This document shows positions 4,880 to 57,483 of a DNA stretch of 64,000 nucleotides, piece by piece. The translations under genes and the position numbers were made by a program. The stretch covers positions 605,793-669,792 of the forward strand of contig JYNZ01000003.1 of NCBI GenBank assembly GCA_001567355.1. Direction: 5' to 3'. The DNA comes from a candidate division WS6 bacterium OLB20. GTDB lineage: Bacteria > Patescibacteriota > Dojkabacteria > B142 > OLB20. Positions within the stretch are counted from its first letter, which is position 1; the number at the start of each line of letters is the position of its first letter. Under the pieces are notes generated by a model. That model was not told the DNA's origin, did no database searches, and worked only from the letters and a program-made list of their open reading frames with translations.

Positions 4880-6996
4880 GTGCTTGATACTTTAAATCCG
4901 CCCCAGCGTGAGGCGGTTACAACCACTGAAGGACCTGTTCTGGTGCTTGCCGGCGCAGGCAGCGGTAAAACCAGGGTACTGACCTACCGCATGTTCTACC
5001 TGCTTAAAAAGAACATTGCACGTCCCGAAAACATTCTTGCTGTAACCTTTACCAACAAGGCTGCCGGTGAGATGAAGGATCGTATTGCCAGCCTGCTGCA
5101 GTCAAGCGGTTCTGCCATGTACAACCTTCCCTGGGTGGGGACGTTCCACTCTATATGTGTGCGGCTGCTCAAGGCCAACGCAGAACATATCGGTCTGTCG
5201 CGCGAGTTTACCATCTATGACCGGGCTGACCAGCTTGATGCGGTTAAAGAGGTAATGAAAAAGCTACAGATGGATACTAAAAACATAAAACCCAACGCCG
5301 TTCTAAACTACATCAGCTCGGCCAAGTCGGAACTGATCCCGGCATCAAGATATCCTGAATACGCAGTCGGCTATTTTCAGGACAGAGTTGCTGAAGTATA
5401 TCCCGAGTACCAGAAACTGCTGCGTTCCAACAGCGCTGTTGACTTTGACGATCTCATCATGGAGGCGGTACGGCTGCTTGAGCAGGAAGGTGATCTGCTT
5501 GAAAAGTACCGAACACTGTTTACTCATATTATGGTTGATGAGTACCAGGATACAAACCATGCCCAGTACCGGCTGATCCAGATGCTTGCAGAACGGCACA
5601 AGAATATATGCGTCGTCGGAGACGATGCACAATCGATTTACAGCTTCCGCGGGGCGACGATACAGAACATTCTCAACTTTGAAAAAGACTATCCCGACGC
5701 AAAAGTGATCAAGCTCGAGCAGAACTACCGGTCAACCAAGACTATTCTCGATGCATCAAATCTGGTCATCGCGCTCAACCCCAATCAGAAAAAGAAACAG
5801 CTCTGGACAGAAAACCACAGCGGTGAACCGATTACTGTCTATGAAGCGCTGGATGAAAAGGATGAGGCAGACTGGGTGGCAAAAAAATCAAGGAACTGAA
5901 CAGTTTTGATACTGCAGTCCTATACCGTACAAACGCACAGTCACGCGCACTTGAAGAGGCACTTCTGAGACGGGGGATCAGCTACCAGGTTATCGGCAGC
6001 GTCGAGTTTTACAAGCGCAAGGAGATCAAGGATGTGATGGCATACCTGCGCGTACTGTACAACCCGGCCGACGATATCAGTCTCAAACGTGTGATCAATG
6101 TTCCAAGACGGGGTATCGGCTCCACAACAATTGGCAACGTCGAACGTGAAGCCCTGGCTAACAGGCAGTCGATTATGCCGTACCTGCTCAGCCTTGCTCC
6201 GGAAGAGCTTGCCCGCTGGGGCAAAGCAGTCAGCGAGTTTACTGTCATGATGAAAAAACTGACTGCCATCTCGCAGCAGGAACCCGTGGGTGTTCTGATC
6301 AACGATCTTATCGAGCTGTCGGGCTACCGGCAGTCGCTGGATGACGGTACTGCCGAAAACGAGGCACGTCTTGAGAACATCCGCGAGCTCATCACCGTTG
6401 CTGACCAGTATAAGGAGCTCGATCCGGCAGAAAGCATGGAGCAGTTTCTTGAGGGAGTGTCCCTGATAGAGGGGTACAACAACCGTGATGATGGACCCAG
6501 TGTCAAACTGATGACAGTTCACTCGGCCAAGGGACTGGAGTTTGATAACCTGTTCATCGTAGGTATGGAAGAGGGCATTTTTCCGCACTCTAATGCCTAT
6601 ATAGAGCCCACACAGATGGAAGAGGAACGACGGCTCGCGTATGTAGCAATTACGCGGGCAAAGCAGCAGCTGTATATTGTGCACACGCAGTCACGTACAT
6701 TCTTCGGAAGCAGAAGCAGCAACCCGGTTTCACGCTTTGTCTCTGATATCCCTGATTCGCTTCTCAGGTTTGAGACATTCGGTGGTGTGACCTTTGACGA
6801 TGGCTGGCGCGAAGTCGTCGAGGATGATGATTACCAGCAGGAGTCGTTTATCGAACTTGAGCGCGGTGACAGGGTGGAGCACGACATCTTTGGTGTCGGT
6901 GTCGTCGTCGACTATGACGATTCACTGATCGTAATCGGTTTCAAAGGAGGACAGAAAGAGCTGTCGCGTGAATACGCAAAGCTAAAAAAACTCTAA
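4880..6996 (+). CDS. pcrA: ATP-dependent DNA helicase PcrA/UvrD; one gene split into ORFs 4880..5899 and 6034..6996 by a 1-nt frameshift in an A7 run (5881..5887)
   Basis: N-terminal Walker A (AGAGSGKTRVLTYR) and UvrD motifs. Reading 5881 onward in the +1 frame gives KKIKELNSFDTAVLYRTNAQSRALEEALLRRGISYQVIGSVEFYKRKEIKDVMAYLR, which joins the second ORF seamlessly. An 8th A would restore the frame. Confidence 0.88.
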
Positions 6997-7082
6997 ACTC
7001 CACTCCCGGTTTGTATTGCAGTACAATGCCTGTCCAGACCATTCCCCGGTAGTCTGAAGTATTACTTCAGCACATTTCAGCT

Positions 7083-8150
7083 ATGCGAAAGACACTTCAG
7101 GTGATTGCTCTTGTTCTGGCAGGTATATTTGCAGTGGCAGCGCCCGCCGCCGCAACTGGCGGCTGGGATTTTCTTCCGGAGTGGGGAGGGTATTACTCGG
7201 AGGGTGCGCTCAGTATCGGTTCATCCGATGAGCCAGATGGACTGCTGGGCCTCACAGCAAAATCAGGCAGCTATACCACACTCAGCTTTGCCGAAGCCGG
7301 AAAACACGGCAGCTGGGAGATCAGTAAGGTAAATGATGCATCGACCTACTATCCGCCAAACTCTCTGCGCATTTTAAACACAAGCAGGTCAGACGGGACA
7401 GCAAACTCTTCACCTGCTCTGGTAATTGACCAGTACAACCGCGTAGGACTTGGCAGACGGGATCCGCAGTATAAACTGGATCTCAACTACCATGGTGACA
7501 GGCAGGCACGGTTTCTTGCAAACACACAGTCAAATGCGCTGCTGCTGATCGAAAACCAGAATGGTGCAGGTGGCAGTGTGACAGGTTATGCCAATACTGC
7601 AACAGGGGCTGCCTACTATTCCGGACTTGCAGCAGATCAGTCATTTAAAATCGGCAGCGACAAAGAACTTACAAACGATCCTTTTATGAGTATCATGCCA
7701 AACGGCTACGTTGCCCTTGGAGAACATATCGCGCAATCGCAGCTGCATGTGTTTGGAACAAAAGGTGATGACGTACGGATGATATTGCAGGAAAAGGACG
7801 GCACAGGTGACTGGCGTATCCTCAAAACAACCGATGATGGTTTTGATCATCGGGGTGCAAACCGCCTGGTGTTTGCAGCCACATCGACTGGAGGCTCATT
7901 TCTGGATAACGCAATGGTACTTGGTAGTGGCGGTAACGTAGGATTTGGTGTCAACCATATGCCCAGTGTGTTGACTGTAAACGAGCGAAACGGCAGTGCC
8001 CTGACCATCAAGGATCAAACCGCGCAGTTTCAGGCGGACATCAGCTCCGGCCAGCTGCAGATTAAAAGCATGAACAGTGATTACAACGTCAAAGACATAC
8101 TCATGAAAATCGGCCACAACGGAGAGGTGTGCATCGGGTCAGGGTGCTAA
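7083..8150 (+). CDS. Secreted hypothetical protein (signal peptide, Gly/Ser/Thr-rich beta-type sequence)
   Basis: 355-aa ORF with a cleavable-looking signal peptide MRKTLQVIALVLAGIFAVAAPAAA. No recognised catalytic motif. Confidence 0.6.
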   Translation: MRKTLQVIALVLAGIFAVAAPAAATGGWDFLPEWGGYYSEGALSIGSSDEPDGLLGLTAKSGSYTTLSFAEAGKHGSWEISKVNDASTYYPPNSLRILNTSRSDGTANSSPALVIDQYNRVGLGRRDPQYKLDLNYHGDRQARFLANTQSNALLLIENQNGAGGSVTGYANTATGAAYYSGLAADQSFKIGSDKELTNDPFMSIMPNGYVALGEHIAQSQLHVFGTKGDDVRMILQEKDGTGDWRILKTTDDGFDHRGANRLVFAATSTGGSFLDNAMVLGSGGNVGFGVNHMPSVLTVNERNGSALTIKDQTAQFQADISSGQLQIKSMNSDYNVKDILMKIGHNGEVCIGSGC

Positions 8151-8159
8151 AATGACCGT

Positions 8160-8786
8160 ATGATCGAAGTCGAACAGCGCGCTGAAGTTACAGAACAACA
8201 GGCGGCTGCCATAGGCAGCCGCCTGAAAAAAGAGGGCAGGCAGACTCGCTCGTTTACCCGCTGCACGCTGGTACAGATCGATCGCAGCGATTTTGAGGTC
8301 ACCACTACCGGCACCTATGACCTTAAATTGCGTAATAACGAGCACGGGCAGCTGTTATTTACTGTAAAACAGGTTAATGCGTTCAATCCGACAACCAGAC
8401 TGGAAAGTGAGGTTTTACTCGAAGTAGCGCAACTAACTGAGCTGCTTACCAACCTGAAGATGCTGGGATTCATCTACTGGATCATGACAGTCGAGAAACG
8501 CGAAACCTTTGAATCTGATGGTGCCACATGGGATATCATCCGCCATCTGACAACCGGCAGGACTCTGCTTGAAGTCGAAGTCCCTGCAGCCAGTGATGCA
8601 GAAATTACAGCTGCCGAGAAACGTTCTGATGAACTGCTTGCTTCTGTTAACGCAAAACCATTATCGGATAGCGCACTTCACGATATTCTCTCCGGCCTGA
8701 ACCGGGCACACGACTATCAGTTTGACCTGTCAGTGGTCGACACTGACATTGTCGCACAACGCTTCACAGAATCTCTCAATAAATAG
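8160..8786 (+). CDS. Hypothetical cytoplasmic protein, possibly CYTH-like (triphosphate tunnel) domain
   Basis: 208-aa ORF starting MIEVEQRAEV, reminiscent of the CYTH N-terminal E-x-E-x-K strand. Weak assignment. Confidence 0.45.
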   Translation: MIEVEQRAEVTEQQAAAIGSRLKKEGRQTRSFTRCTLVQIDRSDFEVTTTGTYDLKLRNNEHGQLLFTVKQVNAFNPTTRLESEVLLEVAQLTELLTNLKMLGFIYWIMTVEKRETFESDGATWDIIRHLTTGRTLLEVEVPAASDAEITAAEKRSDELLASVNAKPLSDSALHDILSGLNRAHDYQFDLSVVDTDIVAQRFTESLNK

Positions 8787-9624: not shown

Positions 9625-9665
9625 CGATTACCTCCTCTAATAAATTCCCCAGTCCGAAACGGTTA

Positions 9666-9717: not shown

Positions 9718-10730
9718 CTACACCAGCTTCTTCAGTCTGATCTTCAGTTTCTGCAGTTGAGAAAGTATGCCAAACATGCGGTATTTTGTGCCGTTTAAGA
9801 CCAGCACGCGTGTTTTAGCAAAACAGTGGTCGGTACCGCCAAAGCCGTGCTTGAACGAGCTGATGCTCTCGAGCGGATGACCCTTCGTATAATTGCCGTT
9901 CAGATCGCGCGGGGCAACACCCCAGTGGTCGTAATACCTTCTGCCGAGAGCGGAAGTCATCTTCATCGCCTCCCATTTAAGCATATACCCCGCCTCAAGA
10001 TCCCGGCCTTCTGATGTGACACCTCCGTACAACTCGTAGACCGATATCTCATCAAGCGCGACAAGGTAGGCACCGACAACAGCCCCGTGATGTTCGGCAA
10101 GCAGTATACGAGCAAGGTCCTTCTGCGATAACTGTTCCCATACTTTGAGAAAATAATTCTTGTCGTGCATCACGTAATCCGTGGCCTTAAAGATCTCCTG
10201 CATGACGGTATAGAACGCATCGACTGCGGAAGCATCATGCGTATGAATACTGACGGTCACACCATGACGTTCAGCTTTTTTAATGTTTCTTCTGTACTTT
10301 CCTTTCATGCCTGACCAGACGGCATCTGCACTGACAGTCTCAACAACACTGGTACACTCGGGCTGCACGCGGTAATCGGTTGCAGGCAGGGACTTGGCAA
10401 AGTAACTGTCCTCTTCGTGATCAAACTCAAACAGTACAAAATCACATACACTGTTTGCACTGAGCCAGGTCTTAAGTTCGCGAACTATCTTTCAAAATGA
10501 AGCAGCGGCAGCGACGCCTTTGGTGAATAACCGATCCTCACGCCTGCTGTCTGCCTGATCAGCACCTGCAGGACAGCAATGATCTCATCATCCAGCCGGA
10601 TGATAAACCGCAGCGGTTCCCAGCCGGGACGTTTAACCTCACCCCACGCACTGTGCTGCAGTACATGGCCCTGTGTCAGCTTCCATGCTGCATCATATTC
10701 CTCAAGGTTGTCAGTTATTTTGAGATCCAT
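9718..10730 (-). CDS. FemAB-family aminoacyl-tRNA-dependent transferase (paralog 1), split by a frameshift at a T3/A3 run (10490..10492)
   Basis: N-terminal ORF 10485..10730 and C-terminal ORF 9718..10368 (GTG start) both show FemAB/FemX-like sequence. The downstream frame is open from 10491, so one extra A gives a continuous protein of about 335 aa. Confidence 0.7.
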
Positions 10731-11954
10731 AAATTGGGTTTAATGAAGCGGGCAATACGGACAGCATCGTCAGGAGTGACATTAACCGATGTCGGCAGAT
10801 TAACAATGTGTTTGGCATATAGCTCTGCTTTTGGTGCGCTGCCGGTCTGATAGCGGAAACGCTCCAAGGTACCCTCGGGTGCATAGAGAATGGTCTTATA
10901 CCAGTCCCCGATGACAACATGATTCTTTTTAGCCTGCTGCAGCGCCAGCTGCTGATCATTAACGAGCACAGGAAACCTGAGGTAGTTATGTTCTCCTTCT
11001 GTTTCGTAGGTTATCCCAAGCTCTCTGCTGTAGACCGCTGCTATGATACGCCGGTGAGCGTTCAAATCTCTCAGCTTTGAAAACTGCCGGATACCTAGCC
11101 GGGCCAATGCTCCTGGCATCTGTGCAGGAAACCACGATGGTTTAACCGTCCTGTATTCTTCGTCCTCAATCATATTGCCAAGCATCCCGAAGCGGTGCGC
11201 TATCCATGTCAGAATTCTTCCGGCAGTCAGTTTGCCGATACCAAGATAATAGACTGGAGTAACGATACTCCAGAACACCGGATTCGTCAGAGAAAGAAGC
11301 ACCCGCAACCTGCTGAAGCGGGGAGCAGATGCGACAGACGCCCGTACCTGAGCAACCAGGTTGGTGTCTCTGGTCAGAACCATTCCGCCACGGACGGTGG
11401 AAATGGCTTTTTCGATCCCGAATGTGAGAATCGCGGCATCACCAAGCAGACCAAGTTTGCGTCCGCGCAATGTTCCACCAAGTGTATGGGCAAGGTCTTC
11501 GATGATTTTCACGCCGGGACCGGTAATCTCTTTAACGGCTTCAACATCAGCCGGCATACCGAATGTGTGCTGCACAAGAATGGCGCGCGTACGTTCTGAA
11601 ACTTTGCTTTTAAGATCAATCAGATTGATGTTGAAATTATCATCCGTATCCACATAAACCGGTGTCGCACCAAGCCAGATCACCGGATTAGCGACTACCA
11701 GACAGGTAAATGCCGGCAGAATGACCTCATCACCGGGACCAACACCATAGCTTTGCAGGATGAGATAGAATGCAGAGCGTGCAGAATCAAGAGCAACGGT
11801 GTCAGCGCCATCAAAAAAAATCCGACACCTGCTTTTCAAATGCGGCGACCGGCTCCGGATCATACCACCTCCACGGTGTAACAAGCTGACGCAACGCCTC
11901 TCTTACATCATCGGACTGAGTGTTCGGCGAAGCTGCGATAAATACAGGTCTCAT
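10715..11954 (-). CDS. DegT/DnrJ/EryC1/ArnB-type PLP-dependent sugar aminotransferase; frameshift in A8 run 11813..11820
   Basis: ORF 10715..11884 matches the DegT core (DGADTVALDSARSAFYLILQSYGVGPGDEVILPAFTCLVVANPV). The true N-terminus is found in the other frame from ATG complement(11952..11954): MRPVFIAASPNTQSDDVREALRQLVTPWRWYDPEPVAAFEKQVSDFF. Seven A instead of eight fuses this to ...DGADTVALD. The ATG overlaps the upstream stop as ATGA. Confidence 0.8.
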
Positions 11955-22418: not shown

Positions 22419-23029
22419 TTAAGTTATGCTCCTGATCAGTGTAACAGCTTTGCCCCTGATCTGAACATTATTGAACAGTTCTGCTTCTTTGCCTTGGGCG
22501 GCAAACGAAAGTCGTATTTTATCCTTCTGATATCCGAGACTGCCGAAGAACGATTCTTCAGGAGAGCGTTCGATCACAACCAGATCACCGTCCGAGGCGG
22601 CATCCTGCTCCGAAAACACCAGAATGTCACCTTTGCGGGCGATACTGGTGTCAAGCACCTCGCTGAGAACATTGAGTGCAAAGAATGTTCCCTGGAAGGG
22701 TAATACAGACTCATGCAGAACAACAATGCGTGTCCTTGCATTGCGTTTTACCTGTCCGTATTCTGCAATAGCACCAAGGACAGGGATCTCGGCGATTCCG
22801 GACACACCCATTTTTGACTCGACTGCCCGGACGCTGCGGGCCTGATTCATCTCCTTATGGATATAACCTTTCTGCTTGAGGTTTTCGATATGTTCGTGAA
22901 CCGTTGAGATAGCAGACAGGTTGAAGTGTTTTTGATGTCAATCAGCGATGGGGCGTAGCCGTTCAGCTGCGAAAACACCTTCACAAAGTCTAAAATCTCT
23001 CTCTGGCGTTTTGTAAGCGGCGGGTACAT
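22419..23029 (-). CDS. lexA: LexA repressor; split by a 1-nt deletion in a T5 run (22929..22933)
   Basis: The N-terminal ORF gives LTKRQREILDFVKVFSQLNGYAPSLIDI. The +1 frame continues HFNLSAISTVHEHIENLKQKGYIHKEMNQARSV into the S24 peptidase domain of ORF 22419..22850. A 6th A on the coding strand restores one protein. Confidence 0.8.
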
Positions 23030-23047: not shown

Positions 23048-24062
23048 CTAACTTTTTATCAGTTCCCCGTTAATGATCTCCCAGCTCGTAGTTGTGCCGG
23101 ACATCGTGTCTGTCTGGCCGTTGATCTGTATTTCTACAGCGTCAGGTCTCGGTGTGACTATTTTCAGGAATGTGATGTCTTCAAACTCGACAGTTTCGCC
23201 AACCTGCAACACCCGGGCGACAGTCAGCTCTTCGTCTTCGGTGATCTCAAGATATGCTTCGCGGTTGACGATGGTGATTGTACCACTTAGTGCAAGTGTT
23301 TCGTCCCGAGTGTCTGTCGGGGAGGGAGTGGGGCTTGCGCCTTCTCCGGCGACCTGGCCGCTGCCAGGTGTCTCTGCTGCCGGTGACTCGCGGAATACAT
23401 TAAATGTAAGTTCGCTCTGTCTGCCGAATTCGCTTTCTGCAACAAGAATAAATGTGTTGAGACCGGGCTGCAGCTCAAATCGCTCGCTGAAGCGTTTGAA
23501 GTTGTTGGTCTCGTATTCCTGACCGTTAACACTCAACTGCGAACCTACTTCGACTTCACCCTCTATCAGCAGGGTGTCCTCGCTGACCCGCAGACTTTCC
23601 TCTCCGCCTGCCTCCACCGGCACCGGGGCCAGAATTCTGAGCTCCGGCTCTTTAAGTACACGTCCGATATACGAGCCGATATAGCCCACAGCGACAATAA
23701 GCGCCACAAGAAGTCCAAGTCCGATAATCCTGCCCGGTGTGATGGTGAGGTTGATCGTTCTGTCCTGCACCCGCTCTGTTGTACTGATGACTGGCTCGCC
23801 TTTTTTTGTAATCGCGCTCACGGCGGTACATTGCGATTGCCCGCTCGGTATTTACCCCGAGAAATTTGGCATAATTCTTCAGAAAACCCTTAAGGTACAC
23901 CTCGGACGGAAAAATATCGTAGTTACCTTCTTCGAGAGCCTCCAGGTATTCTTTGCGGATCTTGGTGATCTCGGCAATCTGTGCAATCTTGAGCTGACGC
24001 TCCTTGCGTCGCTCTTTGAGCAGGTTCCCGATTGTGCGTAATTGAAAACTGGTATTCAGCAT
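23048..24062 (-). CDS. RodZ-like bitopic cytoskeleton protein (N-terminal XRE-type HTH, TM, extracytoplasmic domain); frameshift in T7 run 23811..23817
   Basis: The N-terminal ORF (QIAEITKIRKEYLEALEEGNYDIFPSEVYLKGFLKNYAKFLGV) matches the RodZ HTH. Removing one A joins ...RDYKK to GEPVISTTERV..., followed by a TM helix (GLGLLVALIVAVGYIG). Confidence 0.6.
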
Positions 24063-40177: not shown

Positions 40178-41293
40178 GTCAAGTCGTTTAAGTTGTCGTT
40201 GGCGGTAGAGAAGTGTTGCAGCAAGCAGAAGCACAACCGCACTGATGCTGATGAATGTGAGCTCTCCGGTAATATCCGAAATACTGCCTGAGTCCCGAAG
40301 TACAGTTTCCATGGCAACTGTGGCCCACTTGGTAGGGAGCAGGTCGTTGAATTGAACTGATCTGTCAAACAGTTCAAACTCCCATATCCTCCCGATCCCC
40401 GCGATGAATGATCCCGAGAAGAACCCGAGTACGATTGAAAGCATCGTTCCGATATTTGTCGCGGCATCTATCTTTTTGGTGAGTGCGCCGATCAGCAGCC
40501 CAACTGCAACAACAAAGATCCCGGTAGGTATCGCCACCGCTAAGGCGTTGAGGAGGTTGCCACTTGCCTGGAAACCAAATGCGAGCGCAGTACTATAGGA
40601 AATAATCAGTTGTATGAAGACAAGTGTAAACTGGTACATGCCGGTGCCTGCGAGTATCTGCCAGGAACGTGTACGGCTGGTGAAGTAACGGAAGATATAC
40701 TGCTTTTCCGTAATCTCTGTGAAGTCCTGCGCGATTCCGGGCATCAGAATAAGCATTGAATAAACAATGAGCCCTGGGACAAGCGTATCAAAGGCCGAGG
40801 GGTTATCTCCCGAAGCTGATTCCAGAGTGACTGTCGAAATAAAGCTTATGTCCTTGTTAAGATATCCGGCACTTACATTTTGAATGATCCCCGCAACTGC
40901 ACTGAAGAAGGGGTTAGTCTGTTCTCCTGAAACAATAAGTGTTCCTTCTCCCCCGGGATAAAAATCCTCTGGGACAGTGAGGTACAACGTGATGGTTCCT
41001 GATTTAACCGCCTGTGCGGCGGCATCAGCTGTATCATATTCGCTGATCGCTAGCAGGGGTTTTTCGTTATCCTCGCTCTGCTGCAAACCGGTCAATGTAT
41101 CTTTAAAAGCGGTGTATGACCCGTGCTCCTGCCTGACCATGCCGATACTGAAGGCCTCAATCTCGCCTCCACCAAAAGCCAGACCGAACAATCCGATAAA
41201 TAGTACCGGAAGCACGAACATGATTCCCGCAGACTTCATGTTCCGCCACAATGATTTATAGTTGTAAACAGCGATTGCAAGAACTGTTTTCAT
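40175..41293 (-). CDS. ABC-2-type exporter permease
   Basis: 372 aa with an N-terminal TM, a large extracytoplasmic loop and a 5-TM ABC-2 core. It overlaps the ATPase gene by 4 nt. Confidence 0.8.
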   Translation of the reverse strand: MKTVLAIAVYNYKSLWRNMKSAGIMFVLPVLFIGLFGLAFGGGEIEAFSIGMVRQEHGSYTAFKDTLTGLQQSEDNEKPLLAISEYDTADAAAQAVKSGTITLYLTVPEDFYPGGEGTLIVSGEQTNPFFSAVAGIIQNVSAGYLNKDISFISTVTLESASGDNPSAFDTLVPGLIVYSMLILMPGIAQDFTEITEKQYIFRYFTSRTRSWQILAGTGMYQFTLVFIQLIISYSTALAFGFQASGNLLNALAVAIPTGIFVVAVGLLIGALTKKIDAATNIGTMLSIVLGFFSGSFIAGIGRIWEFELFDRSVQFNDLLPTKWATVAMETVLRDSGSISDITGELTFISISAVVLLLAATLLYRQRQLKRLD

Positions 41294-42236
41294 TCGCGGA
41301 TTTCTTTCCCTGTGAGCAGTAGAAAAATATCTTCTAAAGTGGGTTCTTTCACAGAAACATTGACAGCCTGAACGTCTGTTTGTCTGATTGCGTTCAATGC
41401 AAATTGGATTGACTGGACAGGATCCTCTGTAAGACAGGTTAGTGTGTGATCGCTGCGTGTTAACTCCTTGTGAAACTGTTTTGTCAGTTCCTGCTGAAGT
41501 GCACTGATTGATGGTTCAGGTGTAGCCTCTTCAAGTTCGATGTTGAGTAGTGACCCCTTACCATACATTCGCTTGAGTTGGGGTACCGTACCCTCTGCTA
41601 TAACAGTCCCATCATCAATGATAACAACATAATCAGAAAGCTTCTCGGCTTCGTCCAGGTAATGGTCAGTCAGAACAATGGCATAGTTGTTACTGTCTGA
41701 CAGATCTCTGATGTAATCCATCAGGAAGCGTCTGCTTTGTGCATCAATACCTGGGGTCGGTTCATCAAGGAAGAGCAGTGTCGGGTCGTGAATGATGGAC
41801 AGTGCCAGGTTAAGTCTGCGTTTATATCCTCCGGACAGGTTGCGGGCAAGCGTGTGAGTTTCTTTTTCAAGATTCAGAGCTTCGATCAGATAGTCTGTCC
41901 GCGATCGTGTTTTGTCTGCCGGCATGTTCTGCAGGCGTGCCGAATAAATGAGGTTCTCAATGATCGTCAGATTATCCCAGATAACTACCTCCTGCGGCAT
42001 GACCCCGATACTACCACGCAGATTGTCAGGAACCCTGTCATAATCTTTACCATGATAGTAATTACGCCACTATCGGGGTGCATTTGTCCTGAAAGCATCT
42101 TGATTGTCGTTGATTTGCCAGCACCATTTGGACCAAGCAGACCGAGCACCTTACCTTGTTCAATGGTTAGGTTAAGGTCATGTACAGCTGTTTTACTGCC
42201 GAATTTCTTGCCGAGGTGCGATGCTGTGATATTCAT
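41290..42236 (-). CDS. ABC transporter ATP-binding protein; split by a 1-nt frameshift near 42058..42064
   Basis: The N-terminal ORF has Walker [10 protein letters not shown]. The other frame continues [24 protein letters not shown] into ORF 41290..42000, which carries LSGGYKRRL and Walker B LLFLDEPT. Confidence 0.8.
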
Positions 42237-42293: not shown

Positions 42294-42837
42294 ATGAATA
42301 AAGCAGTTATTATCATGGTAATGGAATATTTGTTTGGCAAACATCCAACACCGCTGCAGCTCTGGGGTACGGTTCTGATGGCTCTTCTGACAGTGATTCT
42401 GTCTGTAGCGCTACTGCAGTCATTTACTGTCTCGTCAGTCGCACTGGTACTGCTTGCCATTGCTGCTGCCGATCTGGGAGGAGGTATTGCAAGTAATTTT
42501 ACTGAGGAGACACGCAGGTTCTACCACGGAAAGAAAAAAGCTGCAGCGTGACTTTCTGCTGCTGCACTTTGCCTATGCACTGATTATCCCGTTTATCTTC
42601 GGAGGTTCACATCTGCCATACTCGGTAATTGCATATCTGACAGCACTGGGCCTCTATATTGTTACCCGGAGCCTGCAGAAAGAGCTGTCTGTTCTGGACC
42701 TTGCAATTGTGCAGACCGGCTACATACTCACAGCGACAGGGCTCGTGTACACATTAGCTGGTGGAACCGTTCCTGACGTCTGGCTGCTGACGCTGCTCAC
42801 GGTAAAGCTGGGGATAGCGTTCCCCTGGAAAACATAA
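42294..42837 (+). CDS. Hypothetical polytopic membrane protein; frameshift in an A6 run (42534..42539)
   Basis: ORFs 42180..42551 and 42454..42837 join if one A is removed (GKKKLQRDFLLLHFAYAL). The internal ATG at 42294 is the preferred start. Confidence 0.45.
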
Positions 42838-45253: not shown

Positions 45254-46466
45254 ATGAAACCAATGAAAGTAGCACTAATTAGTGTGAGTCATGACCCGGG
45301 TGATCCTGATGCAAAATCCGTTGATATCGCAATCGGTCGCTATCTCCATCACACAATGGAAGGAATGTCTCCACTGCTTGGTAATGATGTTGATGTCACT
45401 CTCGTGACCAACGACAGCAGCAGAGTCTCTGATGACAAGGGTTTTGCAGTGCACCGTGCCTTCCGGAAAAACCACCTTATCGGTTTTGCATTGTGGCGCT
45501 ATTTTCTCCGTAACAGGTACGAAGTTGTACATCTGCAGCATGAGTTCTTCATCTACGGCGGACCGCTCAGGTCTGTACTCCTTTCTCTTGGACTGATGTT
45601 TGCACCTGGCGCTAAACGGATCACAACTGCTCATTATATTGTCGATATTGATGCTGTTGATACCGAGCTTGTTACCAGCAACAATTACCGCTACCCGGTC
45701 TGGTTTATCAAGTTTGTCCTGCGGGTAACGTATGCCATCCTGTTTATGGCCTCACACAAGATCATTGTTCATGAAGACTCACACAAACAGATTCTGGTAA
45801 AAAACTGGAAGCGCTACTTCCGGACGATAGATGACCGTATTGCAGTTGTGCATCATGGTGTCGGCAAACGCGAGAGTCTGCCGTCCGAACCTGCGCGCAG
45901 GCAGCTGGGGGGCAAGGCACAGCAGTATGTACTCTTTTTCGGATATGTATCGCGGCACAAAGGATTGGAATTGCTGCTAGATGCAGTTGAGATACTGCAG
46001 AAGCGTGGTCACGATATTTCGGCAATCGTTGCCGGAGGAGAGCATCCCAAGCTCGCTTCAGAAAAATCCTACCGCACCTACTACGGTGAGCTGAAAAAAA
46101 CGCGCAAGAGATCTGCAGAATGTTGTCTGGCACGGTTTCGCAACAGAAGAGGAACTCCCGGCAATATTTTCAGCTGCGGACCTTGGAGTGTTTCCGTATA
46201 AAACACGCCAGGCGGCAAGTGGCGCTGTGACCGACTGTATCGCGTTCGGGCTACCCTTTATTGTGTCGGACCGCTTCAAGTCAAACAGACAGTTTGAGGG
46301 ACTGATATTTGAACTTGATGCGAAGGCGCTGGCTGACAGGATCCTTGATAAATTGAAATCTCAGTCTGTGATACGCTCCGAGATTCTGCGCTGGCAGGAT
46401 GAGTTCAGCTGGGAGAAAAGTGCCCGTTCACAATACGCTCTCTACTCGGGTATACTTTCGCAATGA
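45254..46466 (+). CDS. GT4 (GT-B) glycosyltransferase; frameshift in an A7 run (46094..46100)
   Basis: With six A the sequence reads ...GELKKRARDLQNVVWHGFATEEELPAIFSAADLGVFPYKTRQAASGAV..., the GT4 C-terminal domain continuing into ORF 46188..46466. Confidence 0.75.
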
Positions 46467-47560: not shown

Positions 47561-50376
47561 ATGAGTCCGCTACAACGTATCAGAAACAACCTCGGTCCGG
47601 GGCTCAGGCGAATTATGCATACGCTCCGGTTTATCCGTCTTTCGACTGTCGTGGCTGGTACCGGCCGGATGCTGCACAGCTTTCTGTTTGTCCCTGATGA
47701 TGATGTCCCAAGGGTAAAGCCCGATTACTCGCACATGTCAGTTCCGCAGAGGATGTTTGCACGGGCGGCGGATATGTTTGATTTCAAGATTGTGTTTCTG
47801 ATCGGTCTCGTCTTTATGGCATTTTCTCTCAGGAATGTAATTGCGGAACTCCCGTATCTGATAGCGGAACGTAAATTTATTGCGTTTGATGAGCTGATAC
47901 CAATCTTTGATCTGCAGTCGCAGTACTTTGACCAGATCTCAAGCGGATACAGTGACCTGACGGCAACCAACGAGATCCGGATACGCTATTCGGCACTGAC
48001 TACCTGGACAAGGTACGCACCGATCATCTACTTTTCGCTGCTGATCGTTAATGCTATTGCCTATACACTGATGGTGTTTGCTACAACCCGTTTTTTGAGC
48101 GTCTCTGCGCATCTGCGTGAACGCACAGGCGAAAAAGCGCGACTGCTGACAGCAACACTGGTCAACCTGCCGCTGTTCGTTCTGCTTCTGTATGCCAAGA
48201 TCACGCATTACTACACCCTGATCCTGGGTCTGGCTCTTCTGTATCTTGCTTTTGTGCTGACGCTGGAGCTCTTTCTGGCGCAGGGCAGGGTAAAACGCAA
48301 GGCAGCTGTCATTTTTCTGCTTGTCCTTCTGAATCCGGCTGTTCACTACCATCTGCTGTATTACGGCATTACTGCCTTTATCTGGCTGTTCTTTTTTGCA
48401 GGGGCTCTGACACGACGAATACCATTCAGGCGGTTCATTATGTCGACGCTGCTGTATGTGCTGATCAGTGCGGTGTCGATCGGTGTGTATGCGTTGTTTC
48501 TGTTTGGTGCGGATTCGGTCTACAGCTCTGACAACCTCAATAATGTCGCCCCCGTCAATTACTTTCTGCTTGAAAACTCATCAACACCGCTGCATCACGT
48601 TCTTGCATTAAATCTGTATTCCCCTGTCGACAACTACTACTTTCAGTCATATCTGCCGCCGGAGCCGAATGTGGTAAACGCGCTCTTTCTGGTCGTTGCG
48701 TTTCTGCCGCTCGTGTATCTGCTGGGGTCAAGGGTTATCAGACGCTGGGAACGGGCTGACCGGCTGGGGCTGATGTATCTGCCGGTTCTGGCATTGTCTC
48801 TGTTTTCAATCTACATGGCGCTGGGACTGACATTCAGTGGCAGTATTCACTCGCTGCTGATCGACAATATCGACAGTCCGTTCTTTCAGACAACATTCGG
48901 TTCGCTTGTCTTAAAGGCGTTTCAGACGTTTGTAAGTGTGATCAGGTTTCCACACAGGTTTCAGCTGATCTACCTGATGACACTGTCGTTGAATGCTTCG
49001 CTGGGTCTGCTGCTGCTCTATAAGGCTGTACGCAACAGACAGGTGATGTTAAATCTGAGGCAGCCGGTGACAGTACTGAAAGCCGTCTTCAGTAAGCGCG
49101 CATTTCTCTACATGCTGTCGTTCGCGTTGCTTGTTGTTCCATTCTTTAACACAACTCTGACCCGGACCGTGATTGTCAGTGGCGACTGGAACGGAATATT
49201 TTCGCCGTTTGCGGTGGACGGTGAGGAGATCCTGGCAGAGATTGTGCAGGATGACGAACGTGTGTTTGTGGCGCCGTACCTCGAGCATAACAATTTCATC
49301 GTAGATGAGGACGGTAACAGGCACCGGTTTATTGATAAATTCTGGATTTATCTGCTCAACAGACCGGGCAGTTATTATGGTCTTGGTGGCGATGCACTTA
49401 ACAAGCTTAATTCATTTCTGTCTTCAGGGCGGCACTGTACGAAGATATCTGGTGGGTAAAGATCCTGCGAGATCAGGGTTTTGATTATCTGCTGTTTATC
49501 AAGGACACAGAGAGTGAACTGTTTGATATTGACCGCAGTATCGACACTGCAGTTAAGGGCAACTCAACGATCAAGCAGGTTGCGGACTTTGACCGCTTCC
49601 GTCTGTACAGAATCGACCCAGCACTGCCGGGTGACGAGATTATCGTCTCACTCAACTGGCAGCACTACATCAAACTGATGAACGAGAACAGCAGGCTGAA
49701 CCGCAACACATTCACCTACCAGTTCAATGTCACCGGTGAAGATCTGGGACAGCGCAGGATAATGACAGATGATCCGCAATTTGTGAAGCAGTACGTCGAG
49801 GTGATCGAACATCCTGAGCGGGCGCATTATATTCCGCTTGAACAGCTGACCTTCCGCAAAAACGTCTATCCTGCGTCGCAATATCAGGCATCGGTGATTT
49901 CAATGCTTAACCTGCTGTCAGAGAACCCTCAGTTTAACAAGATCGGTATTCCGTTTCCGTCTGTGCTGCTCAAGACAACAAACCTCTACTCCGGCATCAG
50001 CGGCAGGATGTCAGTGACTGTTCCTCTTAAAAGCCAGGAGCCGTGTTCGCTCTATCTCAACAGCATTAACACCGACAATACAGTCGAGTTTATCGTTTAC
50101 AACAGTAAGGACGAGCCTGTTGCCCGGACAGAAGTGCAGCTGAAGAGAAAACATCCGCAGGACAATGATGTATCATTTACTAAGCTGGATCTGCCCGAAC
50201 TTGAAGCCGGCAGCTACACCATAGGTGTAGAGAAAAAGGACGAAAACGCAATGGTGTACAATTACCTTCTTTGCTCCGACAGAAGTTACCGGGAAGGTCT
50301 TAACCTTACACTCGACGAAAAGATTACGCTCTCAAATGACCAGATTCTTGAAATCTATTCAAAACAGGATAACTGA
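47561..50376 (+). CDS. Large polytopic membrane protein (about 12 TM) with a C-terminal soluble domain; probably one gene of about 938 aa with a frameshift at the GGG run 49427..49429
   Basis: The frame of ORF 49678..50376 is open back to 49411. Adding one G joins ...NSFLSSG to AALYEDIWWVKILRDQGF... . It starts directly at the stop of the pyruvyl transferase. Confidence 0.5.
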
Positions 50377-53300: not shown

Positions 53301-54220
53301 TTGACTGCCGCAAGGATGACTGCAGCGAGACGACCTGTTATGACTATAAAAGCGGAGCACGTCACTGTATCGCTGCTGAGGACAAACAGACACCGGTACT
53401 CTTTAATGATGCGCTGGCCGCAGTGTATTATGACCTCGATTTCCATTCCTACTTTTCGCGTCTTGAAGAGATCCGCGGTGTGAGGCGTGACTTTCTGGCG
53501 TTTCTGCGTGATGAGAAGTTTCTGTCGGATGACGGGGAGATTGTTTTTGACCGCTACCGAAAATCAATGCCGGCAGAGATAACGGTTGGCTCGCTGATTC
53601 CTGTCGATTACAGCAATATCTTTCCTGCCTCAACCAACTTTGGTGTAACACAGATTACAAACAGTTACTTCAGAACGCACCAGATTGAGATGGCAGTCGG
53701 TACCTCTGCAGGTAACGTGATCTCGTTTCTGATCAGAAACGGCGTGCAGCCCGAACGTCTCGCCTCTGATGCTGAATTACGCCTGACAATGCAGCGTGAC
53801 CTGATCGAACGCAACATCGTTCTGTATCCGATTGATGATGTTGATTATTATGACCGGCTGCTCGTAAATGCTGTCCAGCGGCTGGTGCTTGAGGGGGATC
53901 TTTCTGTCTCTGTCGATCTGACGGGAACGAGCACGGTTCTGTACAAAGTTTTCAGCTCCCAGCCTGTGAGCGCTCGGGATGCCGAGCTGCAGAAGCTGCT
54001 GCTGCCCGAACTTGAAGGGCTGGCAACGATGAATGATCTGATTGAGCCGTTTATTGAGGAGGGCACAGAGCTTACACCCGAACAGCGAAAGGAATTAGGC
54101 CGGAATCTTGGTATAGTGAACTGGGGAGACCGTGACAGGGATGCGGAGGAACTGCTCCGGTCGATACCTGCCCGGTCAAGCCTGTTTAAAGCTGTCTACC
54201 TTGGAATTTATGAAAACTAG
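50336..54220 (+). CDS. Giant (1294 aa) membrane-anchored protein with an N-terminal Rossmann-like (FAD_oxidored/PF12831-like) dinucleotide-binding motif and about 1100 aa of unassigned beta-rich sequence
   Basis: TM helix LVLMVTAVVGIPLAAIALSL, then QVFVYGGTLGGSSAAITLAQDDIRVVIASDTPHFGGQAV. No other motif is recognised. The alternative start is ATG 50456. Confidence 0.65.
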   Translation: MTRFLKSIQNRITDAARGVAGYAHGSRIRLSRLNRRNLVLMVTAVVGIPLAAIALSLQERVIILDTQVFVYGGTLGGSSAAITLAQDDIRVVIASDTPHFGGQAVDSGISAFDEAGRGWENYGVYAQLKRYISEKYDITEGRNFGPGNAVVGSLATMPGDVEEFFLNRFSELDPLTFFSDYKLMSVTKDEYGSYSEAELVNEKERIRLIVRFDYLVDGTQTGTLIAKTGAAYNIGFDKREETNEPSAMTEQVRDYFINGYTDREKQHGKLGNRVQSVSAMLPIYDQGYNGFYANDRAISGCWEQSEIKPYVVSGSVFVATEAGCEMTITLQPEFTDAYDIWFINHGNGAIDASLKLDGNEHSYRFISTLDSDRHRLGTFYLSNSQKVELKLRAPAEGHQVEGLILQKTNLHQQPVVLNSPINQRHGFTSTKIRSYLADIYVFSDAGLVSNGLSLNDSRLELTETGPQSYRAERVLINTERNFFDFSSQADADGTKQVLVIPVRPVNSGEIQLLYEDAVQYGSWQPGVSPDGQPNYVSVGESLSQWEITPAKTGRYLVLLDWFPFWDRTTRASIKIFDADTDEQLARSVFSQRFKPREDQIPVMTADLEAGRTYKVRFENFEAGRVLDFADLSLIPLEDSNFIYVEDTALSLSSDRYEGLYDLWLLPAAEQTASVTKDGTTYNTGISNTTAFTIAGRFFVHERSSDSVSGQQIMQMLLIPSYRANSYVKEVDLSSQNYVDIRQLIPGRYIMTTNFDRDLVFGELKAGNAPELEDKSDIPTYRADTGQITSTAAMHHDGATLQIGFTGLVGQPKGKIYLYDEIPGSYNTQQFQFGFPLLKETDTSRQIYFSQTFFNFRNVISPQNLLGRSWGLPFEKMLGTNTLGLSIAATPFNDYAPVTANTLETQELEDNAKRFSYAYYYWIRYDSLINTTTAGCDPADRLHCDPRRVGLAATIYATDDGFSNLVYYREGRRLVTVDPITEQEVTLRYLDCRKDDCSETTCYDYKSGARHCIAAEDKQTPVLFNDALAAVYYDLDFHSYFSRLEEIRGVRRDFLAFLRDEKFLSDDGEIVFDRYRKSMPAEITVGSLIPVDYSNIFPASTNFGVTQITNSYFRTHQIEMAVGTSAGNVISFLIRNGVQPERLASDAELRLTMQRDLIERNIVLYPIDDVDYYDRLLVNAVQRLVLEGDLSVSVDLTGTSTVLYKVFSSQPVSARDAELQKLLLPELEGLATMNDLIEPFIEEGTELTPEQRKELGRNLGIVNWGDRDRDAEELLRSIPARSSLFKAVYLGIYEN

Positions 54221-55691
54221 ACTCAAACATTACACACGGCTTGTTTACCCGTTCGCGGTACTGATCCTTGCTGTACTTGTTTATCTGCGCAGTTCGCATG
54301 CATTTCTTATCTCTCCTGACAGTTACGATATCCTGCTGACTGCAAAAGCGCTGGTGACAACAGGCACCATTGATGTGATTCATCTCGACGGTTACTGGAC
54401 GGCTCTTGCTCCGTTTTCACGCTACGGTGCGGCAATCGTGATAGCGGCAGTGCACACGGTGACCGGTGTATCACTGATCACATCGGCAAAGGCATTGTCT
54501 ATGGGATTGTTTCTGGCAACATGGTCAGCACTGCTTGTCTGGGCTCTAAAAAAATATCCCAAAAAACATTCCGAAGTACTGCTTGTCTGGTCATTATTTG
54601 TGCTTTCATTTGCACAGCTGTTCTGGGTTCAGATGATTGTGGCCGACATGCTGGCTGCTGCTGTCTTCACTGCCGGACTGCTGCTGACCGATCTGCAGAT
54701 AAACAGACGCGGTCGCTATCTTGGGCTTGTCATTGGTGCGCTTGTGTTTATCCGCTGGGAGATCGCAATTCTGCTGCTGCTGATTGCGTCTGTCCGGCAC
54801 CGGTATCGCCCCTCAGAAACACTGCTGCTGCTGATGCCCGGTGTGCTCACGTATCTCCTGTTTCTTGCTGCAACCACCGACTCGACACGATATGTCGATT
54901 ACCATACCGCCCGTCTTCAGGAGGGGATCCTGCTAAGTCCGCTCCTGCTGATCCTGGGGCTGGTGCTGCTGGTGTTTGTGTTTATCCGCTTCAGGAGCAA
55001 TCTGTTGCATCTGCTGCTTGGCGCGGCACTGCTTGTGCCAGGGGTACTGTTTTTTGAACAGCACGACATTCTGGGGACACTGGGAAATGCGTTGTTCCTG
55101 TTTGGTCACGAACTGCCGCTGTTTGTGCTGGTACTGGTCTCGCTGTTTGTCGCCCGAAAAGAAAACTTTGAGACAGTCAAACTCTATATCGGGCTGGCCG
55201 GACTGATGGTATTTACCTACCACTTCTATTTTCAGCATTACACGATTATTCTGCCTCTGGCTTTTATTGCCGTTGTTATGTCACTGCAGGCGGCACATCT
55301 GCATAAGCGCCAGATCGCGTTTCTGCCCGTGCTGCTGGTGATCTCGCTGCTTATGCTGGTGATTGAGCTGCCGCGGCAGGCACCTGACTCGCCGGATATC
55401 TACTCGAGCGCATTTGGATACTACAGCAGCCGGCAGTTGCAGCCCTGCCTGACTTCGGGGACTATCGAGACAAGTTTTGTTCCAGAGCTTCTGTTCTGGC
55501 GCTTCCAGGACCGCTCACGGATTGCTTCTATCGGCGACATTGCCACAGATGCGACGATTGTCGACCGCGAGTATGCTCTCCGGAATGAGCTGTCCAGCAA
55601 TCAGTATGCAAAAGTTGAGATTGACAACTCACTGCTTGTCCGCGGACAGGGCAGGTACAATCCATGGCTGTATATTCGATGCGGTCAGTGA
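54210..55691 (+). CDS. Polytopic membrane protein, GT-C-like (putative glycosyl/arabinosyl transferase)
   Basis: The internal ATG at 54210 overlaps the upstream stop by 11 nt. About 13 TM helices, with an early loop ISPDSYDILLTAKALVTTG. Confidence 0.55.
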   Translation: MKTRLKHYTRLVYPFAVLILAVLVYLRSSHAFLISPDSYDILLTAKALVTTGTIDVIHLDGYWTALAPFSRYGAAIVIAAVHTVTGVSLITSAKALSMGLFLATWSALLVWALKKYPKKHSEVLLVWSLFVLSFAQLFWVQMIVADMLAAAVFTAGLLLTDLQINRRGRYLGLVIGALVFIRWEIAILLLLIASVRHRYRPSETLLLLMPGVLTYLLFLAATTDSTRYVDYHTARLQEGILLSPLLLILGLVLLVFVFIRFRSNLLHLLLGAALLVPGVLFFEQHDILGTLGNALFLFGHELPLFVLVLVSLFVARKENFETVKLYIGLAGLMVFTYHFYFQHYTIILPLAFIAVVMSLQAAHLHKRQIAFLPVLLVISLLMLVIELPRQAPDSPDIYSSAFGYYSSRQLQPCLTSGTIETSFVPELLFWRFQDRSRIASIGDIATDATIVDREYALRNELSSNQYAKVEIDNSLLVRGQGRYNPWLYIRCGQ

Positions 55692-55759
55692 CCGTATACC
55701 CTGTATACCTGTTTATGGTATAGTACCGGCAGAACGTTTAATTAATCCATAATTAAATC

Positions 55760-56143
55760 ATGTACCACGCCATCATTCTCGAAAATTCCCTGACAGACCC
55801 TGACAGTTTTCTGGAAGAATATGTTCCGTTTGCCATTAAGCATCTGACGGACAGCGGCTGGATCGTACAGGGGGTTGAGGTAAAAGACTCAGAAATTGAT
55901 GCTTTTACAGCCGCGTTGCAGGAACAGATGCAGCAGGGGCCCTGGTATAACCATATGTACAATGAGTCAGGTGAACTGACCATCGTATTCAAAGACAGGA
56001 TCTACCGGGTCGAAACTCCTGATGACATAATGCCCGTCTGGGAGTACGCTAAAGAACTCAACATTCCTGAAGAGCAGCTGCAGTTTGAGCCGGCATCGTT
56101 TGAGGAGGAAGAGGAGTTTTTTACGAACGGCAGCGCTGACTGA
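55760..56143 (+). CDS. Hypothetical acidic cytoplasmic protein
   Basis: 127-aa ORF. Confidence 0.45.
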   Translation: MYHAIILENSLTDPDSFLEEYVPFAIKHLTDSGWIVQGVEVKDSEIDAFTAALQEQMQQGPWYNHMYNESGELTIVFKDRIYRVETPDDIMPVWEYAKELNIPEEQLQFEPASFEEEEEFFTNGSAD

Positions 56144-56276
56144 GAAGGGTGTTTGTCGCCCTGCGCTTATAAGATCTCAGCTTGTCTGAGCGGTCGCTTG
56201 TCTCTTTTCACTATCCGGCAGGGGCGGCCCCACCCCTCTTACGTTCATTCTAGCTGACAGGTATTAATAAATCCTT

Positions 56277-57483
56277 ATGTCCCAACCCCTCGCAGAAAAA
56301 CTCAGACCCCGCTCACTTGACGACTACGCCGGCCAGGAACACCTGATCGGTAAGGATAAGCCGCTGCGTACGATGCTTGAGCAGGGCAAGGCAGTCTCAA
56401 TGATCCTCTGGGGACCTCCGGGCAGCGGCAAGACCACACTGGCTAAACTCATAGCCGAGTACGTAAAGGCGGAGTTTGAACAGCTGTCGGCAGTAACAAG
56501 CGGCGTTGCCGATCTGCGCGAAGTGATCAAGCGTGCGCAGGAACGCGGACAGTATCACGGCTTTGAGACAATCCTGTTTATTGATGAGATCCACCGGTTT
56601 AACCGCGCTCAGCAGGATGCCCTGCTGCCGTATGTCGAGGATGGAACAATCACGCTGATAGGTGCAACAACCGAGAACCCAGGCTTTGAGGTAAACGCTC
56701 CGCTGATTTCCAGAAGCCGCGTGTTTAAGCTGGATCCGCTGTCCGATGATGCCGTGCGAGACATAATCAAAAAGGCTGTCAAAGAGTATCCGGCTGTCAA
56801 ATGGGATAAAAAGGCCATTGAGCACATGGTTCTGCATGCCAATGGTGACGCGCGTACGGCGCTTAATGCGGTTGAGCTGGCTGCATCCCTCACCAGGCAT
56901 GTCACACTCAAGGTCGCAGAAGAAGCGCTGCAGCGCAAATCAATCTACTATGATAAAAAGGCCGACGAACATTACGACACCATCTCTGCATTTATCAAAA
57001 GCATGCGTGGCAGTGACGCCAGCGCAACGCTGCATTATCTTGCCAGGATGCTTAAGGCAGGAGAAGACCCGATGTTTATCGCACGCCGGATGGTGATTTT
57101 TGCCTCGGAAGATATCTCAAATGCGGCACCGACCGCCCTGGTGCTGGCTACGACCTGCATGCAGGCCGTGCACATGATCGGCATGCCTGAGGCACAGCTG
57201 ATCCTTGCGCAGACAGCAACGTACCTCGCATCCGCTCCCAAATCAATCGCGTCTATGACAGGTCTGTTTGAGGCGATGCAGGATCTTGATACCCAGCGTG
57301 TCGAGCCTGTTCCGCTGCATCTGCGCAACGAAAAAAAACAAGCTGATGAAGCAGTTTGACTATGGCAAAGGTCATGTCCGTTACCCCTGGATGCAGGAGC
57401 GTGAGTCGGGGGAGCGCCCTGACCAGCAGTATCTGCCTGACAACCTCAAGGACCGTGACTACTACCGCCCGGACTGGAAATGA
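56277..57483 (+). CDS. rarA: Replication-associated recombination protein A (AAA+ ATPase RarA/MgsA); frameshift in an A8 run 57331..57338
   Basis: Walker A GPPGSGKTTLAKL. The C-terminal KLMKQFDYGKGHVRYPWMQE is in the +1 frame (ORF 57268..57483), and seven A restore HLRNEKNKLMKQFDYGKGH. Confidence 0.85.

Follow-up and report, generated by a model that had tools for sequence, protein, structure and literature searches.

Ten genes in the stretch of DNA analysed here (the window, 64 kb in length) are each off by one base, and these ten frameshifts are very probably uncorrected Ion Torrent PGM consensus errors in candidate division WS6 bacterium OLB20, a genome bin that has been published. An artefact is the most likely cause of the breaks because the bin was built solely from Ion Torrent reads, which are error-prone in this way; most likely, then, the frameshifts are not a real biological feature. 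The preliminary description had named homopolymer-prone read error as the cause, and this is supported by the provenance of the sequence, by indels in assemblies of raw runs and by intact genes in relatives. The result is mainly a quality warning for the public OLB20 genome.

Ten split genes and their repair

All ten split genes listed in the preliminary description are present, each as two frames that overlap at the junction, and in every case (10 of 10) a change of one base restores a single gene (Table 1). A base is missing at five sites and an extra base is present at five.

Table 1. Split genes in the window and the base change at each junction (window coordinates)
Gene	Span	Strand	N part	C part	Site	Change
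pcrA/uvrD-type helicase	4880..6996	+	4880-5899	open from 5866	A7 at 5881-5887	one A missing; A8 restores 705 aa
femAB-family gene 1	9718..10730	-	10485-10730	9718-10491	T3 at 10490-10492	one base missing; repaired 337 aa
DegT/DnrJ/EryC1-type aminotransferase (degT)	10715..11954	-	11811-11954 (47 aa)	10715-11902	A8 at 11813-11820	one extra base; split near 5' end
lexA	22419..23029	-	22847-23029	22419-22937	T5 at 22929-22933	one base missing; repaired 203 aa
rodZ-like gene	23048..24062	-	23652-24062 (HTH)	23048-23851	T7 at 23801-23807	one extra base
DrrA-like ABC ATPase	41290..42236	-	41985-42236	41290-42069	within 42045-42062, no closer placement; run ≤ 2 nt	one base missing
Small multi-pass membrane protein, probably split	42315..42837	+	42315-42551	open 42409-42834	A6 at 42534-42539	one extra base
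GT4-type glycosyltransferase	45263..46466	+	45263-46201	46095-46466	A7 at 46094-46100	one extra base
Large membrane protein	47561..50376	+	47561-49459	open from 49411	TCTTC at 49421-49425 (best placement)	one base missing; repaired 938 aa
rarA/mgsA	56277..57483	+	56277-57359	open from 57259	A8 at 57331-57338	one extra base; split near 3' end

Continuity of a profile or of a homolog across the junction backs nine of the ten. The profile coordinates of the two fragments are 1-60 and 71-349 of UvrD_C in pcrA, 3-32 and 34-64 of LexA_DNA_bind in lexA, 2-45 and 53-136 of ABC_tran in the ABC ATPase, 2-51 and 52-140 of Glyco_trans_1_4 in the GT4 gene and 1-112 and 108-151 of MgsA_C in rarA. After the 1-nt repair there is a single continuous match that scores higher than the fragments: UvrD_C 1-349 (268.6 bits), ABC_tran 2-136 (116.6 bits), MgsA_C 1-151 (182.3 bits, with a junction that reads HLRN-EKN-KLMK), LexA_DNA_bind 3-64 and Glyco_trans_1_4 2-140. 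In the rodZ-like gene one frame carries HTH_25 and the other RodZ_C, and the repaired product holds HTH_25, a membrane segment and RodZ_C within 337 aa. The profile match of degT begins at position 40 when unrepaired and at position 9 when repaired, and the alignment of the ABC ATPase with solved ABC domains has no gap over the junction. The exception is the small membrane protein, for which neither a homolog nor a Pfam match was found; its split is judged from the two open frames, from coding potential and from the hydrophobic character of the sequence to either side of the junction.

Comparison with relatives, which had been proposed as a check, showed intact orthologs encoded by single ORFs, and none of those examined (PcrA, FemAB, DegT, LexA and the large membrane protein) conserves the split architecture. 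PcrA is a single ORF of 707 aa in the relative L003, and all PcrA homologs are of ~705-745 aa. At the pcrA site L003 reads GCAAAGCAGATC, against which the window has a 1-nt gap, and the homopolymer is absent there. FemAB is a single ORF in L003 (341 aa), and both window parts are contiguous and in one frame in L003 and in a second relative, L004, which also has both parts of DegT in one frame. LexA is a single ORF of 203-205 aa in relatives, and its homologs from Dojkabacteria range over 199-205 aa. The large membrane protein has a relative (P0173, 937 aa) that is 72% identical and gapless over the junction. When repaired PcrA was compared with the genome collection, L004 (64% identity) was the only useful Dojkabacteria locus among the matches listed, which were dominated by the conserved motif NKAAGEMK.

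Two of the sites had been placed wrongly. The stretch at 23811-23817, given as the T7 of the rodZ-like gene, reads ATCGCGC, and the T7 lies ten bases lower (Table 1). In the large membrane protein the gap is best placed at the TCTTC a few bases before the G3 at 49427-49429, which keeps the conserved Arg. The site proposed for the ABC ATPase (around 42058..42064) cannot be placed so narrowly, while the T3 given for femAB is correct, since in the sense of the gene A4 has become A3.

Lesion spectrum and run length

The claim that all breaks fall at homopolymers stands for seven of the ten sites, which are in A/T runs of 5-8 nt (P = 4.5e-11; runs of at least 5 nt hold 1.7% of the bases in the window). 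The other three are in runs of ≤ 3 nt, which are not real homopolymers. Both eight-mers in the window were hit, as were 3 of 12 seven-mers, 1 of 41 six-mers and 1 of 147 five-mers. The extra base is A or T in all five cases, and the mean run length at the ten sites is 5.5 nt. The same mean was reported for indels of Ion Torrent relative to Illumina sequence, with adenine hardest affected (PMC12046094).

Each broken gene has one frameshift, and a search of the 64-kb window found neither a further frameshift nor a gene interrupted by an in-frame stop. A second lesion, large deletion or insertion element alongside the ten frameshifts was likewise absent. Frames downstream of the junctions remain open for up to 376 codons, and the sites are spread from ~0.06 to 0.88 of gene length (own calculation). 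Candidate in-frame stops all proved to be ordinary gene boundaries; for example, ORFs of 355 and 208 aa are separate genes in L003. A frameshift at the 89-nt overlap of ORFs of 1294 and 519 aa is unneeded, with the Prodigal start of the second gene at 54210. There is no significant sparing of essential genes: dnaA, dnaN, rpoB and the part of rpoC present are intact, and ~1.3 hits would be expected in these 7.7 kb (P ~0.27, own calculation). A deficit of hits in long genes is likewise not significant (P ~0.14, own calculation).

This spectrum bears on the unlikely possibility of true mutations that became fixed in the OLB20 population after a recent burst of 1-nt slippage in a CPR lineage with a small genome. 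Such a lineage would perhaps be without mismatch repair, with ~18% of the genes in the window fresh pseudogenes. In favour of this reading, replication slippage also prefers long homopolymers. The absence of any other type of lesion speaks against it; by our own estimate, real spectra have ~3-5 nonsense mutations per 10 frameshifts, and the downstream frames are without decay. Joint loss of pcrA, lexA, rarA and rodZ would also be implausible for an organism that is abundant and has a genome of 1.4 Mb. Mycobacterium leprae and young symbionts of the Sodalis type likewise have many conserved genes interrupted. Their mass pseudogenisation involves nonsense mutations, several lesions within one gene, deletions and insertion elements, whereas the broken genes here each carry a single 1-nt indel and no other damage.

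It is highly improbable that the frameshifts are real but overcome during expression, with full-length proteins made through programmed frameshifting on the ribosome or through slippage in transcription at A/T runs. The intact downstream frames would agree with this, as would the location of seven sites in A/T runs, at which stuttering of RNA polymerase can occur. In addition, pcrA has A_AAA_AAA in the right phase for a -1 slip and degT has UUU_UGA, a +1 context, and these resemble the signals of dnaX (-1, A_AAA_AAG) and prfB (+1, CUU_UGA), respectively. Unlike in dnaX and prfB, there is no conservation (neither site nor homopolymer is kept in relatives, as the pcrA site of L003 illustrates), no sensible alternative product and no plausible motif at the eight other sites, three of which are without any slippery sequence. 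The direction of the shift is also mixed (five sites need -1 and five +1). The runs known to give useful transcriptional slippage are of 9 or more, and the longest run here is 8 nt. In the insect endosymbionts Buchnera and Blochmannia, poly(A) frameshifts are rescued by transcriptional slippage, and the window resembles their genomes in that A/T homopolymers carry frameshifts in conserved genes that are otherwise intact, in a symbiont-like bacterium with a small genome. Their tracts are of 9-10 nt or more, in AT-rich genomes, and the frameshifts are retained from lineage to lineage. In the window GC is ~50%, no run at a site exceeds 8 nt, three sites lie outside runs and the genes of relatives are intact.

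Provenance and run lengths in other assemblies

Exact GenBank proteins of OLB20 (public, spanning KXK26970-KXK27025) were found for each of the 20 fragment ORFs tested and for 10 of the 11 intact proteins compared. OLB20 is a Dojkabacteria/CPR genome bin from the Olburgen partial-nitritation/anammox reactor; the genome is of 1.4 Mb, the organism was abundant and GC in the window is ~50%. Reads for the bin came only from the Ion Torrent PGM (400-bp kit, 8.2 Gbp, CLC assembly), and the source authors reported 'persistent frameshifts, common in IonTorrent data' in their drafts, which were corrected with a script and manual curation (PMC4821891). That even the obvious pcrA split survived this correction in the published bin counts against an artefact.

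In flow-based sequencing each homopolymer gives one analogue signal, from which run lengths are over- or under-called, more commonly in longer runs, and the platform also makes context-dependent 'high-frequency indels' at short runs. Where a wrong length wins the consensus, a gene shows up as two neighbouring ORFs in different frames. For Ion Torrent, insertions of A or T, deletions of C or G and indels in runs of ≤ 3 nt are described as causing frameshifts in assemblies (PMC3623719), and the 'high-frequency indel' errors cover the case of the three sites outside homopolymers. Described PGM errors (Bragg et al. 2013, PMC3623719; Speth et al. 2016, PMC4821891) share with the ten sites 1-nt indels that are mostly A/T, a frequency that increases with run length, some events at ≤ 3 nt, no substitutions and split ORFs. 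They differ in direction: of the six sites with a run of at least 6 nt, five are over-called here, whereas the PGM is described as under-calling long runs. These ten particular sites are presumably errors of this kind.

Assemblies of single runs from the 2015 era carry three homopolymer indels relative to the window in 2.96 kb, without any substitution. That of SRR1797697 (L086) has T6 to T7 and T3 to T4 in 1052 bp, and that of SRR1797700 (L088) has T5 to T4 in 1907 bp and is the same as the window at the site in the large membrane protein. Judging by accession era and strain identity, both runs are probably part of the source project.

Against an artefact, assemblies of three later runs give the unrepaired lengths at all ten sites, which would make the frameshifts real if these runs come from an accurate platform and are independent of the published assembly. 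The assembly of SRR29904086 matches the window at 100% identity over ~57 kb, and that of SRR29904084 does so over 8.8 kb. For SRR29904083 the comparison was of gene-product lengths, which are the same in its three contigs (~18 kb). Such recurrence is unlike Ion Torrent errors, which are usually specific to a run; homopolymer errors were reported not to be repeated between independent runs (PMC12046094, PMC3623719). The later contigs do not look like raw PGM data, because the indel noise of ~1 per kb in the 2015-era runs is absent. In the low-coverage later runs contig ends fall outside homopolymers (own calculation), which argues against flow-type noise there. The preliminary description would have given up read error if high-accuracy reads confirmed the run lengths, and the agreement of the later assemblies comes near to this, with the caveat on platform and independence just given.

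No publication identifying runs SRR29904083-86 was found in the literature, including Olburgen metagenomes from 2023 on, and the Logan paper does not state how non-Illumina runs were treated. A Logan contig of 154,640 bp stops at the conserved NADFDGDQMAVH motif, and the 553-aa partial RpoC was not found in GenBank. This end is likely a branch point in the k-mer graph and is therefore uninformative as a test of independence from the published bin.

The match of every run length in three later runs that lack noise of the Ion Torrent type is the main point in favour of fixed mutations. That reading also needs an error-free Ion Torrent consensus over ~66 kb, including nine other runs of at least 7 nt, and the later runs may depend on the published assembly. 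It is improbable that the run lengths are real and that OLB20 thrives with about one in six genes broken by a single-base indel. Real lengths would imply either a lineage poor in repair that went through a burst of slippage very recently, or an organism that routinely tolerates frameshifts because its polymerase or ribosome slips. Speculatively, the unusual CPR ribosome might be involved.

The later assemblies also bear on phase variation. Seven of the ten broken genes are envelope-related (femAB, degT, GT4, the ABC exporter, the two membrane proteins and rodZ), as might suit contingency loci in which homopolymer tracts switch surface-related genes. This is almost certainly not the explanation: tracts are of ≤ 8 nt and absent at three sites, pcrA, lexA and rarA are not surface genes, and lengths are identical at all sites in the later-run assemblies, with no polymorphism. 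The only variation seen was at other homopolymers, in runs of the Ion Torrent era.

Consequences for use of the OLB20 genome

With Ion Torrent consensus error as the preferred reading, calls of pseudogenes, gene fission, missing domains or gene loss in OLB20 must allow for ~1 uncorrected indel per 6 kb, and the other 22 bins from the source study probably call for similar care. Were the later runs both independent and accurate, the window would instead record unusual mass frameshifting in a CPR bacterium. Truncated OLB20 proteins have spread to UniRef and clustered protein databases, where entries carry names such as 'LexA repressor' (143 aa) and 'PcrA' (339 and 319 aa).

Ten split genes and their sites

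Ten of about 56 genes in the window are split by single-base indels, as the preliminary description had claimed: pcrA, femAB, degT, lexA, rodZ, an ABC ATPase gene, memb (encoding a small membrane protein), GT4, the gene for a large membrane protein and rarA. Paired open frames, profile continuity and the single ORFs of relatives bear this out. When each junction was rebuilt, two long overlapping open frames were found on the same strand at all ten sites. In seven genes the two frames cover neighbouring stretches of a single Pfam profile, or both domains of one known architecture, and after single-base repair each of the seven gives one continuous profile match with a higher score. memb is probably split, judging from ORFs, coding potential and hydrophobic sequence only. 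A base is missing at five sites (pcrA, femAB, lexA, ABC ATPase and large membrane protein) and extra at five (degT, rodZ, memb, GT4 and rarA). Coding potential and a Pfam scan revealed no further frameshift in the rest of the window and no gene broken by a stop codon.

Orthologues in related genomes, a comparison proposed at the outset, are single ORFs. In L003, the locus of a relative, PcrA (707 aa) and FemAB (341 aa) are each intact, as is DegT in the relative locus L004; LexA of relatives is 199 to 205 aa, and the large membrane protein of a relative (937 aa, 72% identity) aligns ungapped across the junction. By its PcrA homologues, the window's organism belongs to Candidatus Dojkabacteria (WS6, CPR). 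ORFs of 355 and 208 aa lie in the same frame, one stop codon plus 9 nt apart (window 8148-8150); they were rejected as a nonsense split, their homologues in L003 being separate genes with another gene between.

Most of the site coordinates first proposed are correct. The T7 run of rodZ, however, sits at 23801-23807, the ABC ATPase site (put at around 42058 to 42064) is placeable only to within 42045-42062, and the gap in the large membrane protein aligns to TCTTC (49421-49425) rather than to a G3 run. Location in homopolymers holds for seven of the ten sites, which are in runs of at least 5 nt, a class making up 1.7% of bases (P = 4.5e-11); it fails for three sites, which have no run. The affected runs include both eight-mers and 3 of the 12 seven-mers, 8 nt being the longest run at any site, and all five insertions are A/T.

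Features of the window, with Pfam profile positions matched in the two frames of split genes
Feature	Window position	Strand	Profile positions (first frame / second frame)
pcrA			UvrD_C 1-60 / 71-349
lexA			LexA_DNA_bind 3-32 / 34-64
ABC ATPase			ABC_tran 2-45 / 53-136
GT4			Glyco_trans_1_4 2-51 / 52-140
rarA			MgsA_C 1-112 / 108-151
rodZ			HTH_25 / RodZ_C (one domain per frame)
degT			match begins only at position 40
dnaN	14768-15895	-	
dnaA	16137-17522	-	
yidD	17633-17941	+	
tRNA-Ser(CGA)	35503-35591	-	
tRNA-Arg(GCG)	38359-38434	-	

Source data and indel noise

Speth et al. 2016 sequenced eight libraries with the Ion Torrent PGM only and assembled them with CLC (PMC4821891). Because sequencing was by PGM only, the published bin comes from an error-prone platform of the kind suspected from the sequence (PMC4821891), and the frameshift problem was known to its authors (PMC4821891). 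The read-error interpretation is supported, an Ion Torrent-only source genome being the documented cause. All 20 fragment ORFs tested, out-of-frame tails included, are exact GenBank proteins (range KXK26970-KXK27025) of candidate division WS6 bacterium OLB20, whose longest contig is 744,746 bp; so are 10 of 11 intact proteins looked up, a 298-aa protein among them. The sole miss is a 1370-aa protein whose sequence is absent from the protein collection, though the Logan contig does have a call for its gene. A 1008-aa protein, which starts upstream of the window and extends into its first 596 bp, is also an exact OLB20 GenBank match.

Two variant proteins in 90% clusters led to L086 and L088, Logan contigs of SRR1797697 and SRR1797700, respectively. 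From their 2015-era accessions, which match its date, we infer that both runs belong to the source BioProject. Relative to the window, the sole changes are T6->T7 and T3->T4 in L086 (1052 bp; window 48232-49281) and T5->T4 in L088 (1907 bp; window 49355-51262); neither has a substitution. Judged by these differences, single-run assemblies of the OLB20 strain have a homopolymer indel about once in each kb; runs are lengthened as well as shortened, and those of 3 nt are not spared. The differences break the large membrane protein and a 1294-aa protein otherwise than in the window. Shortened variants P0131 (194 aa) and P0133 (165 aa) are cluster representatives in the protein collection.

PGM both over- and under-calls homopolymers, and its 'high-frequency indels', which arise about once in 1-2 kb and often insert A/T or delete C/G, are a source of frameshifts in assemblies; only 29% of them lie in homopolymeric regions (PMC3623719). 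Indels between Ion Torrent and Illumina data fall in runs averaging 5.5 nt, the same as at the ten window sites, with adenine most affected, and Ion Torrent genomes are over-represented among RefSeq exclusions for many frameshifted proteins (PMC12046094).

Artefact or biology

Very probably the ten frameshifts are artefacts and the splits no biological feature. That they are real in OLB20 is unlikely, although later runs in which the strain was assembled show the same sequence or product lengths, without the 2015-era noise. Window positions 1-35686 and 36463-57560 are matched at 100% identity by a 154,640-bp Logan contig of SRR29904086, and positions 5539-14326 are matched without a difference by one of 8,788 bp from SRR29904084. 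For SRR29904083, three short contigs were compared by gene-product lengths only; these agree with the window, including truncated products of 632, 360, 240 and 143 aa. No indel noise of the 2015-era kind was found in the contigs of these three runs. Since they are noise-free and the same errors are not usually repeated between independent Ion Torrent runs (PMC3623719, PMC12046094), there are two options for the three runs. Either their data are accurate and independent, which would make the frameshifts real, or they depend on the published consensus, as could happen with simulated or derived reads or with re-used material.

Real decay fits poorly with exactly one lesion in each gene, ten frameshifts unaccompanied by nonsense mutations, deletions or insertion elements, downstream frames open for up to 376 codons and sites spread evenly along genes. 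Real frameshifts would also need an Ion Torrent consensus free of errors for about 66 kb, with nine further runs of at least 7 nt called correctly, an indel-only mutation spectrum, and joint loss of pcrA, lexA, rarA and rodZ in an abundant organism with a 1.4-Mb genome. Given these three demands, the artefact reading is kept.

Programmed recoding might be suspected at pcrA (A_AAA_AAA) and degT (UUU_UGA), which look slippery, but these are the only such sites, direction is mixed (five -1 versus five +1) and relatives keep neither frameshift nor run. Runs of at most 8 nt, and three sites with none, argue against transcriptional slippage or phase variation. The practical value of reading the splits as artefacts is a warning on the public OLB20 genome and on truncated proteins seeded from it into databases.

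Other features of the window

A replication origin is probably located near 14768-18700, where dnaN and dnaA adjoin yidD. Cumulative GC skew is lowest at about 12-20 kb, and the sign of the AT skew switches at about 16 kb.

A cell-envelope locus (9718-14726, minus strand) has a DegT-type aminotransferase gene between two FemAB-family genes; a PMT_2-type glycosyltransferase (561 aa) comes next. The locus suggests capacity for peptidoglycan cross-bridge and glycan modification in a CPR bacterium. The 1008-aa and 1370-aa proteins (window 1-4810; L001 488-3514) are very large and predicted to be at the cell surface; they contain CarboxypepD_reg domains, bacterial TSP3 repeats and linkers rich in Pro and Thr.

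At 21086-21685 the window encodes a 199-aa Fe/Mn superoxide dismutase with both Pfam domains complete; the source paper assigned OLB20 to the anaerobic granule core (PMC4821891). At 50336-55691, the 1294-aa protein, with an N-terminal FAD_oxidored match covering profile positions 2-206 of 416 only, is followed, with an 11-nt overlap, by a 493-aa multi-pass membrane protein. Both are GenBank proteins, and neither is recorded in the gene-position index.

Although they contain one A7 and four A6 runs, rpoB (1183 aa) and rpoC, the latter over its first 540 codons, are intact (58795-64000). The 154,640-bp contig is unbroken through both tRNA genes. It stops at RpoC's conserved NADFDGDQMAVHVP motif (L087 15206-15257), 51 nt beyond the end of the window, probably at a k-mer graph branch common to other organisms.
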